NCBI GenBank assembly: GCA_001780285.1
Contig: MFGN01000005.1
Coordinates: forward strand, 10,200-74,199
Direction: 5' to 3'
DNA: 64,000 nt
Origin: Candidatus Falkowbacteria bacterium RIFOXYD12_FULL_34_57
GTDB lineage: Bacteria > Patescibacteriota > Patescibacteriia > Patescibacteriales > UBA12075
Under the pieces are notes generated by a model that worked only from the letters and a program-made list of their open reading frames with translations, searched no databases and was not told where the DNA came from. A program made the translations under genes and the position numbers. Below are positions 38,611 through 41,315 of the stretch, piece after piece; position 1 is the first letter of the stretch; each line of letters opens with the position of its first letter.

Positions 38611-39850
38611 ATGAAAAAGCAATTAACAGAAGATTTGTTTCGAGCTTATTATGATGCACGGAGAAACAAGCGCAATAAAAAAGACGTGGTTAAGTTTGAA
38701 GTGAACTATGAACGTAATTTGTTTGTTTTGGCTGAAGAAATTCTGGATGGAAAATATCAACCTGGTGTCAGTTCTTGTTTTATTGTTAAAAAACCGGTTA
38801 AAAGAGAAATCTTTGCCGCTTCTTTTCGTGATAGAATTGTCCATCATCTAATATATAATTATATAAATCCGCTTTTTGAGCGAAGTTTCATAAATGATTC
38901 GTATAGTTGCAGAATCGGAAAAGGCACTTCATATGGCATCAAGCGCTTGAATCATTTCATCCGTTCCTGTTCAGAAAATTACCAAAAAGATTGTTATATA
39001 TTAAAGCTGGATATCAAAGGATATTTCATGTCAATTAACAAAAATATTTTGCATGAAAAAATAAAAGAAACGCTAAATACAGCACGAGAGAGAGAGAGAG
39101 AGAGAGAGAGAGAGTAATTTTTCCGTTTGCAGGACAAAGTATTTTGATTATAAATTAATTCATGATTTGATTGAAAAAACAATTTTTTATAATCCGATAA
39201 AAAACTGCGCAGTCAAGGGTAAAGGAGAAGATTGGGCGGGATTGCCGAAATCAAAAAGTTTATTTTTTACACAAGCCGGTTGCGGACTGCCAATCGGTAA
39301 CTTGACTTCACAGCTTTTTGGCAATATATATTTGAATGAATTTGATCACTATGCCAAAAGAAAGCTAAAGATAAAATATTACGGTCGATACGTGGATGAT
39401 ATGGTTTTTGTTCATCGCGATAAAGAATATCTTAAATCCATTATCCCACAGATAAGAAATTATTTGAAAAAAAATTTAGCACTGAGTTTGCATGAGAAAA
39501 AAATTTATCTCCAGCATAATTCTCGCGGAGTGGATTTTTTGGGAACAATCATAAAACCGCATCGCATTTATATAAAAAATCGCACCAAGGGGAATTTTTA
39601 TAGATTGATTAAACATTGGAACAAAGTCTTGGAAGAAAATAAAAACGAATTAGCCAAAAATGAAAAAAAGCAATTTTTAGCCGGCATGAATTCTTATCTG
39701 GGAATAATGAGCCATTATGATACGGCAAAATTAAGACAGAAGATGCTCGGTTGCTTATCGGTTTATTTTTGGAATTATTTCTATAATGAGAAAGGGTTTT
39801 TGAAGAAAAGGTCCAGACAGCACTACGATCAATCAATTGACAAAGCATGA
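38611..39850 (+). CDS. DGR reverse transcriptase, split into two ORFs (38611-39117, 39167-39850) by a frameshift in a (GA)n tract
   Basis: N-terminal part: REIFAASFRDRIVHH, SYSCRIGKGT, YILKLDIKGYFMSI. C-terminal part: GLPIGNLTSQLFGNIYLNEFD (DGR-clade [LIV]GxxxSQ signature), YGRYVDDMVFV (YxDD), GVDFLG. The second frame is open from inside the repeat (39086) onward. 1240 nt total, so +2 nt gives 414 codons. Confidence 0.85.
39086..39114 (+). repeat. (GA)14+G dinucleotide tract at the RT frameshift point
   Basis: 29 nt of strictly alternating G/A, read as RERERERERE then TAA in frame 1. Frame 2 reads through it into the rest of the RT. Confidence 0.95.
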
Positions 39851-39893
39851 AACCATCTGCTACAATAAAGGTATAATTCATTTTTTATACTAT

Positions 39894-40496
39894 ATGGTCA
39901 AAAAACTAAATCCTATTTTAGTGCAAAAAGGCCTGGCGGAGAAGGATATTATTATTTTTAGCCCCAGAGAATTTCAACGGATATTTGCTGTCTCCGGTTT
40001 TGCCGCGCAAAAATTTATTCATCAACATGCACGGAAAGGGTTTTTTAACAAATTGAAAAACGGTTTGTATTGCCTGTCTTCGGCTAAACCGCATTCTTTT
40101 GTTGTCGCCAATAAATTATACGCGCCTTCATATATTTCGCTTGCCACCGCCTTGTCGTTTCATGGCATCATTCCTGAAACAAGCTACGGCATTAGCAGTG
40201 TCTCCACCAAGGCAACCCGCGATATTTATTCATGTCAAAAAGAATTTACCTATAGCAAGATCAAAAAAAGCTTGTTCACCGGCTATGGTTTTTATAGGCA
40301 AAATAATGAAAAATTTTTCATGGCTGAGCCGGAAAAGGCCTTATTGGATTATCTGTATTTTTTAACGCTCAATTCAGGCAAAATAAACAGCCGGATAAAT
40401 ATAACAAAATTGAACAAACAGAAAATCAAAAAATGGCAAAAATTATTTAACAATCCCAAAATAGACAAATTTATCACTGAATTATATGCTGGATAA
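39894..40496 (+). CDS. abiEi: Type IV toxin-antitoxin system AbiEi-family antitoxin
   Basis: About 200 aa, N-terminal wHTH-like region, immediately upstream of and overlapping (11 nt) an AbiEii gene. ATG 39894 preferred over TTG 39837, which would overlap the RT. Confidence 0.65.
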   Translation: MVKKLNPILVQKGLAEKDIIIFSPREFQRIFAVSGFAAQKFIHQHARKGFFNKLKNGLYCLSSAKPHSFVVANKLYAPSYISLATALSFHGIIPETSYGISSVSTKATRDIYSCQKEFTYSKIKKSLFTGYGFYRQNNEKFFMAEPEKALLDYLYFLTLNSGKINSRINITKLNKQKIKKWQKLFNNPKIDKFITELYAG

Positions 40497-41208
40497 AAAT
40501 CAAATTACAAAAATTGCTACCAATCTTCAAACAACGGAATACAATACAGCGGAAGAATATTGCCAGCATATTTTTTTGTCGCAGTTTTATCAATTGCCAT
40601 CAAGCGAACGCGTTTTTTTCAAAGGCGGCACTGCTTTGCGTATCGTTTTTGCTTCTCCGCGTTTTTCCGAAGATTTGGATTTTTCTTCAGATTTAATGAT
40701 CAAAGATTTACAGCCGCTTTTTCAAAAAACCTTAAAAGCAATGGAAACATATGCAATTCAGACCGAAGCCTTGGAAGCAAAAGCCACTTCGGGCGGGTTT
40801 TTGGCGATTTTTGTTTGTAAATTATTGGATTTTTCCGTTCAATTGCAGGTAGAAGTATCAAAGCGTAACAAAAAAGATTTGGAGGGTGAGATTTTTTCAA
40901 TCAATTCCGATTTTATCCAGCCCTATACTTTGTATAATCTCAAAACTGAAATGCTTGTTTCTGAAAAAATCCAGGCAACGCTTACGCGCAAAAAACCTCG
41001 TGATTTTTTTGATATCTATTTTCTTTTAAGATCTCGTTTGATTATACCGAGTCAGAAAAAAGATTTATTAAAAATTAAAACATTGATAGAAAAATCCGAG
41101 ATTAATTTTTCGCGCGAACTAAAACAATTTTTGCCAATATCATTTCATAATATTATTAAAGATTTCAAGAAGACACTGGTAAATGAAATCAATCGGAATG
41201 TGGCTTGA
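40486..41208 (+). CDS. abiEii: Nucleotidyltransferase AbiEii/AbiGii-family toxin
   Basis: FFKGGTALRIVFASPRFSEDLDFSS is the hallmark N-terminal motif of the AbiEii (DUF1814) nucleotidyltransferases. Confidence 0.8.
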   Translation: MLDKNQITKIATNLQTTEYNTAEEYCQHIFLSQFYQLPSSERVFFKGGTALRIVFASPRFSEDLDFSSDLMIKDLQPLFQKTLKAMETYAIQTEALEAKATSGGFLAIFVCKLLDFSVQLQVEVSKRNKKDLEGEIFSINSDFIQPYTLYNLKTEMLVSEKIQATLTRKKPRDFFDIYFLLRSRLIIPSQKKDLLKIKTLIEKSEINFSRELKQFLPISFHNIIKDFKKTLVNEINRNVA

Positions 41209-41315
41209 AACTGTATTGTTAAAAAAGAAATTCAAGCGTTTATCGGTTTAATTGTGTTTATAATGAGAAAGGGTTTTTGAGGGAAAGGTGATGGGGGTGA
41301 TAGATAAAAATTAAC

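Follow-up and report, generated by a model that had tools for sequence, protein, structure and literature searches.

Genes and repeats at the 3′ end of the reverse transcriptase gene

Within a 64,000-nt stretch of the genome of Candidatus Falkowbacteria bacterium RIFOXYD12_FULL_34_57 (Patescibacteriota; contig MFGN01000005.1, positions 10,200 to 74,199; hereafter the window, on which all unprefixed coordinates are counted), we analysed a diversity-generating retroelement (DGR) whose reverse transcriptase (RT) gene is followed by a two-gene AbiE toxin-antitoxin (TA) module. The module lies between two direct copies of the RT 3′ end, termed R1 and R2, and beyond the second copy stands a gene for an AAA_14/DUF4143 (COG1373) ATPase. 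The features of this region are as follows.

38611..39850, + strand: DGR RT gene, split by a frameshift in a GA tract into open reading frames (ORFs) 38611-39117 and 39167-39850, with RVT_1 matches in both halves
39755..39812, + strand: R1, the repeat copy still functional as 3′ coding end of the RT (LSVYFWNYFYNEKGFLKKR); the RT ends of loci L001, L002, L004 and L096 are homologous
39813..39835, + strand: left junction segment, 23 nt, encoding part of the RT tail and absent from loci L014/L015 and from the R2 flank
39836..41208, + strand: AbiE cassette, consisting of a promoter (TTGACA-18-TACAAT, 39837-39866), abiEi and abiEii, assigned by homology to L014/L015, promoter scan, PADLOC and Pfam
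39894-40496, + strand: abiEi, 200 aa, ATG start (PADLOC AbiEi, 2.6e-42)
40486-41208, + strand: abiEii, 240 aa (PADLOC AbiEii, 1.3e-25; Pfam PF08843)
41209..41239, + strand: right junction segment, 31 nt, matching neither the L014/L015 downstream sequence nor the RT
41240..41291, + strand: R2, the other copy of the RT 3′ end, decayed and non-coding, with the putative ancestral TGA (41289-41291), aligning with the stops of L001, L002 and L004
41316..42585, + strand: AAA_14/DUF4143 (COG1373) ATPase gene (41386-42585) with its promoter (41316-41344), assigned by Pfam and PADLOC (PDC-S01)

A sequence-only reading of this DNA had reported that the end of the RT gene recurs downstream of abiEii, and both copies were recovered where it had placed them. 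The 11-mer TTATCGGTTTA has two sites only in the 64-kb window (39755 and 41240), two matches being reached in 0/100 shuffles, and the 31-mer TATAATGAGAAAGGGTTTTTGARGRAAAGGT is likewise confined to two sites (39782-39812 and 41259-41289), which match at 29 of 31 positions against an expected number of 0.00. A spacer of 16 nt separates the two blocks in R1, and one of 8 nt in R2, so that the identical 11-nt block, the near-identical 31-nt block and the 8-nt difference in spacing were all reproduced. Local alignment of the left and right AbiE flanks gave a score of 58, which was reached in 0/300 shuffles. The repeat is genuine, found nowhere else in the window and beyond chance, its two copies differing at 2 of the 31 positions, by approximately three further substitutions and by an 8-nt deletion.

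Read in the RT frame, R2 gives YNEKGFLRER followed by a stop, whilst the window RT ends in YNEKGFLKKRSRQHYDQSIDKA followed by a stop (its C-terminus is also written as ...KKRSRQHYDQSIDKA), both translations agreeing with those made previously. Upstream of the common YNEKG... segment the 8-nt difference sets R1 and R2 out of frame with each other and the conserved YFWNY segment is broken in R2, which also has an in-frame stop 22 codons upstream of YNEKG. Owing to this upstream stop and the 8-nt difference, R2 lies outside any ORF, and no long ORF was found to cross it.

Repeats in such a position could be functional or dispersed elements, such as an attC-like site, a terminator, a repetitive extragenic palindrome or miniature inverted-repeat transposable element, or a regulatory RNA, rather than a scar. 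The flanking repeats of three further loci considered below (L100, L019 and L034) are intergenic and contain hairpins, and L097 carries arrays of 8-nt repeats before each cassette, as this explanation would have it. At the present locus, however, exactly two copies occur in the window, R1 is conserved RT coding sequence common to other genomes, and R2 retains an in-frame RT-like terminus and stop. R1, R2 and the region after abiEii fold no better than their shuffles (z = +0.9 to +1.3), and no terminator is predicted at either copy. We rejected the attC, terminator and structured-RNA readings on account of this folding, the lack of a predicted terminator and the conserved coding content of R1, and a functional or dispersed element of any kind appears extremely improbable here. 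The sequence-only reading had itself named a common dispersed repeat as the finding that would overturn its interpretation, and what was found instead is a single pair with one member inside a conserved gene.

The ancestral stop codon of the reverse transcriptase

Comparison of the RT with 120 homologues identified a nearest clade of seven sequences (P0002, P0003, P0007, P0010, P0012, P0015 and P0021; 57-68% identity), all of which (7/7) end in ...G.LK[KILR]R with nothing beyond. In the DNA alignment, the TGA after R2 falls opposite the stop codons of L001 (TGA), L002 (TAG) and L004 (TAA), a position at which R1 reads TCC. The two copies therefore part company inside the old stop codon, R1 continuing from ...AGG T into CC and R2 from ...AGG T into GA, and the alignment supports R2 as the copy that keeps the ancestral RT stop position. 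This answers the question of whether RTs of DGR loci lacking AbiE end like YNEKGFLRER, in that the nearest RTs stop at the TGA codon of R2. The earlier proposal that an AbiE module was inserted at the RT 3′ end and replaced its last codons is accordingly upheld as regards insertion and set aside as regards replacement: the last codons are kept in R1, and only the stop is split.

Beyond R1 the RT gains a C-terminal extension of 12 codons (39813-39847), ending at a TGA inside the abiE promoter, and the resulting SRQHYDQSIDKA tail is confined to this population's own protein cluster. Since two RT relatives, P0017 and P0006, also carry C-terminal extensions of similar length, the 12-residue tail is probably harmless. 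The tail of P0017 (locus L096) was considered as a second insertion at an RT stop and rejected, a 2-nt deletion beside the stop being the better explanation.

AbiE as a self-contained cassette

The assignment of the two genes to abiEi and abiEii held under profile searches. AbiEi covers positions 27-194 of the 199 positions in the PADLOC profile and has no match in Pfam, and AbiEii matches PF08843 at 3.9e-20 (73.3 bits against a cut-off of 22.5) and shows the nucleotidyltransferase signature GGTALR...SEDLDF. The genes overlap by 11 nt, and the start of abiEi was corrected from a TTG at 39837 to the ATG at 39894. Their promoter is near-consensus (11/12 positions by promoter scan), and a short inverted repeat, GTATAA-N8-TTATAC, stands directly 5′ of the abiEi ATG. 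By sequence and operon structure, the pair belongs to the AbiE family of type IV toxin-antitoxin and abortive-infection systems and is a predicted toxin-antitoxin module. AbiE systems are reportedly known from the Lactococcus plasmid pNP40 and from Streptococcus agalactiae, and are said to be related to the MenAT nucleotidyltransferase toxins. The present pair resembles them in its overlapping two-gene operon, its AbiEi and PF08843 matches, its GGTALR...SEDLDF signature and its own promoter directly upstream; it differs in lying inside a Patescibacteria DGR and at the stop codon of a gene.

AbiEii is 100% identical to a protein of 'Candidatus Falkowbacteria bacterium RIFOXYB2_FULL_34_18', and the same locus is present in many assemblies of this Candidatus Falkowbacteria population. 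The closest cassette outside it is that of L014/L015, whose AbiEii is 83% identical to that of the window and whose DNA aligns at 80.2% identity over 1367 nt, from the −35 box at 39836 to 41199, just short of the abiEii stop. A further check suggested by the sequence-only reading, a search for the same AbiE pair elsewhere with the same flanks, thus located the cassette in a different setting: the flanks of L014/L015 are unrelated to those of the window, and neither contig carries an RT. Judged by these comparisons, AbiE is a self-contained cassette independent of the RT. Between the repeats, the ORF list for 39813-41239 holds abiEi and abiEii and no other ORF of a length that would fit a recombinase, and no transposase ORF was present in the insert. 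No terminator-like site was predicted on the + strand between RT and abiE, so RT transcription may run into abiE.

AbiE as a possible partner of the retroelement

We compared the locus with 85 other RT loci (80 related loci from reference genomes and five fetched individually) and with 80 other AbiE loci, these being metagenome loci with AbiE relatives. A same-strand adjacent AbiE was found at 0/85 of the RT loci and a duplicated RT end at 0/85, the latter search returning only short chance matches and a masked-N artefact in L053; conversely, an RT was found at 0/80 of the AbiE loci. The search for AbiE beside RTs yielded a single distant AbiEii-like match, on the opposite strand and approximately 5 kb away, in L023. 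Given that RT and AbiE show no recurrent association, we favour the view that AbiE is incidental accessory DNA inserted in the DGR rather than a DGR component or conserved partner, which was one of two alternatives offered by the sequence-only reading. Our literature search found nothing on AbiE within DGRs or on repeats flanking AbiE.

These surveys also bear on whether the RT itself was exchanged. An imported DGR segment, with abiE already downstream of its RT, could have deleted the resident RT save for its last ~50 nt, in which case R2 would be the remnant of an older RT. The divergence of R2, including an indel, would suit such a history, as would the mosaic character of DGR loci in this clade, which contain gene fragments such as the LamG pseudogene piece that follows the RT in L001. 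Replacement nevertheless appears distinctly improbable to us. No RT-like sequence was found upstream of R2 beyond the repeat itself, and abiE lies downstream of the RT in none of the 85 other loci, so that a donor with the required arrangement is not known. Moreover, the break falls exactly in the stop codon and R2 lies 31 nt past the abiEii stop, and the same geometry recurs at loci without an RT, such as L136 and L174, so that a general insertion process is the simpler explanation.

The downstream ATPase gene and the probable pre-insertion neighbourhood

The window ATPase is 69% identical in amino acid sequence to the second ATPase of L096 (L096:2906-4090), and its promoter and a 34-nt tandem repeat are common to both loci. 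Nucleotide homology with L096 begins at 41316, the −35 box, 24 nt past the R2 stop, and R2 was rejected as part of an ATPase cassette because the homology starts only there. In L004 and L096, the RT is directly followed by an AAA_14/DUF4143 gene. The ATPase gene was probably the neighbour of the RT before the insertion, and the simplest history suggested by the alignments would have the ATPase gene next after the RT stop and AbiE arriving later between the two. The 34-nt tandem repeat (AAGTATAAAATAATC..., window 41303-41370 and L096:2841-2899) overlaps the ATPase promoter and is kept with the gene, and is a probable operator.

Flanking repeats around other AbiE and COG1373 genes

Flanking direct repeats were surveyed at 51 non-redundant AbiE pairs with enough flanking sequence, with 61 genes from the same contigs as controls. 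Significant repeats flanked eight of the 51 pairs and one of the 61 control genes (Fisher p = 0.011); with all loci compared, they flanked 7/28 AAA_14/DUF4143 genes against 4/206 control ORFs. The AbiE repeats are 35-188 nt long and occur on unrelated metagenome contigs. Seven cases, viewed in detail, place the downstream copy 0-32 nt past the abiEii stop and the upstream copy 5′ of the abiE promoter. In L107, L136, L165 and L174 the repeat consists of the last 32-89 nt, stop included, of the co-oriented upstream gene, as in the window, and the downstream copy starts 0-4 nt past the abiEii stop; the upstream genes of L136 and L174 belong to recognizable families, DUF2304 and DUF6498 respectively. 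Repeat positions at these and further loci are listed below.

L107: 3302-3363 / 4723-4781 / 5643-5674
L136: 1038-1077 / 2486-2526
L165: 220-310 / 1786-1873
L174: 3343-3377 / 4718-4752
L171: 2556-2743 / 4213-4400, around an AbiE pair
L100: 1480-1548 / 3014-3082, around an AbiE pair
L096: 2744-2794 / 4109-4160, 51 nt, around the orthologue of the window ATPase and made up of the 5′ end of the gene that follows
L025: 5718-5777 / 7421-7480, around AAA_14/DUF4143
L034: 6203-6275 / 7705-7776, around AAA_14/DUF4143, hairpin-containing and intergenic
L084: 896-929 / 2314-2348, around AAA_14/DUF4143
L019: 5559-5617 / 6907-6972, around AAA_14/DUF4143, hairpin-containing and intergenic

An insert flanked by direct repeats of a gene 3′ end, with the gene left intact, would also result from Campbell-type or site-specific integration, in which an abiE circle carrying an RT 3′ end recombines with the resident RT end, whether homologously or with the help of a trans-acting integrase, making R1 the element-borne attL and R2 the displaced original attR. 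Copies of different origins would be expected to differ as R1 and R2 do (~10% and an indel), and the three differences within the coding part of the L107 repeat are all synonymous. L107 further contains two TA cassettes in a row, an AbiE pair and then a RelE/YafQ-like pair, with a repeat copy after each and a third, partial copy, an arrangement that fits repeated recombination at one site. Against these points, no integrase or recombinase lies in or beside the 1.4-kb insert, the sole transposase-like gene near the locus (Y1_Tnp) being ~6 kb away. The repeats are unrelated between loci and derive from whichever gene lies upstream, so there is no common att site, and 50-58 nt is, by textbook standards, close to the shortest length on which RecA-dependent recombination can act. 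Close AbiE relatives never stand beside an RT fragment (80 AbiE loci, L014/L015), and viral contigs, when scanned, contained no match to the AbiE cassette and hence no carrier. Integration of this kind is, in our assessment, unlikely. The earlier statement that the second copy is the stranded original terminus is affected by this choice: R2 does keep the ancestral terminus, but the word 'original' depends on the mechanism: target duplication makes both copies original and a Campbell-type event makes R2 alone original.

The surveyed loci raise the further possibility of a dedicated process. AAA_14/DUF4143 genes recur directly after DGR RTs and beside AbiE pairs, and DUF4143 has been catalogued as an uncharacterized family of the PD-(D/E)XK nuclease fold (PMC3424549). 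In L097, four consecutive cassettes (ATPase, AbiE, ATPase, ATPase) each follow a run of (ATGYTTAM)n 8-nt tandem repeats and then TTTGACAAAACA, with runs at 2792-2928, 4319-4387, 5987-6119, 7516-7592 and 8845-8912; this resembles an array of cassettes that have an inter-cassette element in common. L100, in appearance the most recent case, has 69-nt repeats with 66 consecutive matching bases. No filled and empty pair was found for it, contigs with an identical ATPase being all filled, and in its 83% relative L186 the downstream region is different and has no repeat copy. The L100 repeat also contains a hairpin, and may therefore be a structured intergenic element and not a plain target duplication. 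The closest AbiE cassette, that of L014/L015, has no flanking repeat within the sequence at hand, so such repeats are not universal. It is conceivable, though doubtful, that an undescribed route of movement inserts AbiE pairs, a RelE/YafQ-like pair and single COG1373 genes at gene ends with target duplications of 35-190 nt, repeated hits building arrays. The COG1373 ATPase-nuclease genes would then be candidate machinery and the DGR RT 3′ flank one hotspot. We keep this suggestion tentative because the cases are heterogeneous, the closest relative lacks a repeat and no filled and empty pair was recovered.

A probable target-duplicating insertion at the stop codon

With a probability of roughly 0.7, we infer that the AbiE cassette was inserted at the RT stop codon by a target-duplicating event and that R2 is the insertion scar. 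The ancestor would have carried an RT ending in ...YNEKGFL(K/R)(K/E)R-TGA, followed ~25 nt on by the AAA_14/DUF4143 promoter. A horizontally acquired cassette of 1.37 kb (sigma-70-type promoter, abiEi and abiEii) would have entered after the first base of the RT stop, and its insertion would have duplicated approximately the last 58 nt of the RT. Thereafter R1 would have remained under selection as the RT C-terminus, reading 12 extra codons to the TGA in the abiE promoter, and R2 would have turned non-coding and decayed through an 8-nt deletion and approximately five substitutions. As its route we favour an illegitimate, target-duplicating insertion, arising either when a staggered break was filled in or when replication switched template to foreign DNA and back again, and the intact empty site would be reconstructed as ...TTTTTGGAATTATTTCTATAATGAGAAAGGGTTTTTGA[A/G]G[A/G]AAAGGTGATGGGGGTG. 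Once established, AbiE would be an ordinary predicted type IV toxin-antitoxin or abortive-infection module. In a compact genome the upstream region of the neighbour abuts the RT stop, and an insertion of this type would survive because duplication alone leaves the RT end and that region both intact. As R1 and R2 have diverged and all assemblies share the same two copies, the event would be old relative to the diversity of the population.

Several observations weigh against this account. An empty-site allele was not found among contigs with an identical AbiEii, ATPase or RT, all of which are filled, and no RT orthologue whose C-terminus is complete exceeds 83% identity, the 83% relative P0097 being cut off before it; consequently, the pre-insertion state had to be rebuilt from relatives of 57-68% identity. 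To our knowledge, there is no established bacterial mechanism for variable target duplications of 35-190 nt. The ~10% divergence and indel between R1 and R2 could mean two RT alleles instead of one duplicated sequence, and the 23-nt and 31-nt junction segments are unexplained. Finally, the RT-downstream ATPases of L004 and the window are only 26% identical and hence not orthologues, so that conservation of the RT-ATPase adjacency is weak except with L096.

Several known types of insertion share individual features with the proposed event. Genomic islands integrate in the 3′ or 5′ ends of protein-coding or tRNA genes, with an element-borne copy restoring the gene, as SGI1 does in trmE. The AbiE insertion resembles these gene-end islands, among them the dusA-targeting islands (PMC8409611), in lying between direct repeats of the end of a target gene that is still functional. 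Such islands, however, range in size from kilobases to hundreds of kilobases, bring their own integrase and act at a single defined att site, whereas the present insert is 1.4 kb long, holds a TA pair only and is bounded by locus-specific repeats. With integron cassettes, including the TA cassettes of chromosomal superintegrons, it has in common a small promoter-bearing TA cassette and a repeat after the last stop, and the arrays of L107 and L097 are similar; it differs in having no attC-like imperfect palindrome or fold and no IntI, and in that R1 is the conserved coding sequence of a neighbour. A duplicated target bounding the insert is also typical of transposons and of LINE-like target-primed reverse transcription, and the variable duplication length (35-190 nt) and the sharp right end of the insert at the abiEii stop recall the latter in particular. 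In contrast to both, there is no transposase and there are no poly-A or other RNA-derived features, and no terminal inverted repeats pairing the two ends of the insert were found. The duplications made by insertion sequences are short and of fixed length, compared with 50-58 nt here. Because its own promoter is included, the AbiE cassette is not a copy of a processed transcript.

Anatomy of the retroelement and its nested genes

The remaining components of the DGR are arranged around the RT in the order target 1 with its variable repeat (VR1), bAvd, template repeat (TR), RT and target 2 with VR2.

32631..37817, + strand: DGR target gene 1, 1728 aa, with LamG repeats and a C-terminal Fib_succ_major domain carrying VR1 (Pfam Fib_succ_major, 9.3e-31)
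37626..37816, + strand: VR1, 94% identical to TR
37849..38190, + strand: bAvd accessory gene (Pfam bAvd, 1.3e-14, 55 bits against a cut-off of 40)
38351..38541, + strand: TR, identified by TR/VR comparison
45549..46784, + strand: DGR target gene 2 with VR2 at 46593-46783 (Pfam Fib_succ_major, 6.1e-34)

In-repeat mismatches fall at TR adenines in 10/10 cases for VR1 and in 12/12 cases for VR2, the latter being 93% identical to TR. VR2 lies 6.7 kb downstream of the RT, and between the RT and target 2 stand the AbiE pair, two AAA_14/DUF4143 (COG1373) ATPase genes and a gene for a beta-helix protein; with a second VR target downstream, all of these are physically inside the DGR. Patescibacteria of the candidate phyla radiation are reported to carry DGRs with Fib_succ_major or CLec-type targets. 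The window DGR agrees with these in its TR and two VRs with adenine-only mismatches, its bAvd gene, its DGR-type RT and its large surface targets with LamG repeats. It departs from them in the AbiE, ATPase and beta-helix genes between RT and second target, and in an RT whose C-terminus reads through into a tail and whose (GA)n tract shifts the frame.

Two VR1 positions, one of them a TR-adenine site, differ between the window and assemblies L007/L180, which is consistent with recent DGR activity. As direct repeats of ~190 nt, VR1, TR and VR2 could recombine with one another, and recombination between them would delete the RT. Just past target 2, an IS200-like Y1 transposase gene occupies 47194-47856 (Y1_Tnp, PF01797, 1e-07). 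At L001, of the complete RT loci the closest, the LamG-type gene fragment comes after the RT and is succeeded by a Gp49/HigB-like gene with a helix-turn-helix antitoxin gene, the stretches concerned being L001:8649-9210 and 9321-9981, so that a different TA module lies downstream of a related DGR RT.

The frameshift in the window RT is caused by one further feature of the gene.

39086..39114, + strand: (GA)14.5 tract of 29 nt in the RT, leaving the RT out of frame, recognized by comparison of alleles across assemblies

Within the same population the tract has alleles of 27, 29 and 31 nt, of which the 31-nt allele gives an intact RT of 413 aa (L010/P0243) and the 27-nt allele the third frame (P0245). 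Three other genomes have long GA tracts at this position of the RT (L001:7935-7952, L002:7940-7982 and L096:529-567), with the RT out of frame in 3/3, and L004 has a short tract (~1305-1315) and an intact RT. From these alleles, the (GA)n tract looks like a conserved simple-sequence on/off switch, that is, phase variation of the DGR RT, of which no description was found in the literature. Several contigs end at the RT GA tract, and the length differences may instead be assembly errors in the repeat. A further assembly of the same RT, P0001 (source SRR3989339_11755; equivalent to window ~39490-39660), has the GA tract in frame and lacks 56 residues between two GAGAAAAAAA-like stretches (...LSL[H/N]EKK...), representing either a deletion variant or an assembly artefact.

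Implications for DGR loci in Patescibacteria

As far as comparison with related loci indicates, AbiE at the RT stop is an insertion scar and not a functional partnership. The insertion can be read at base-pair resolution inside a stop codon, which is rare for uncultivated Patescibacteria. Two of the observations made alongside it, the long duplications that recur around other cassettes and the GA tract that switches the reading frame of the RT, may carry greater weight than the scar itself. By conjecture, a TA pair placed between the ~190-nt direct repeats VR1, TR and VR2 could penalize the recombinational loss of the RT. Should a common process prove to underlie the long duplications, TA and defence genes would have a recombinase-independent or COG1373-dependent means of spread, which would help to explain how defence islands are assembled. 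In the space from its RT to target 2, the DGR gathers cassettes for defence and addiction that are unrelated to it, and the AbiE insertion stands as a dated scar of gene flow, indicating that the DGR locus of a tiny genome is not a closed unit.

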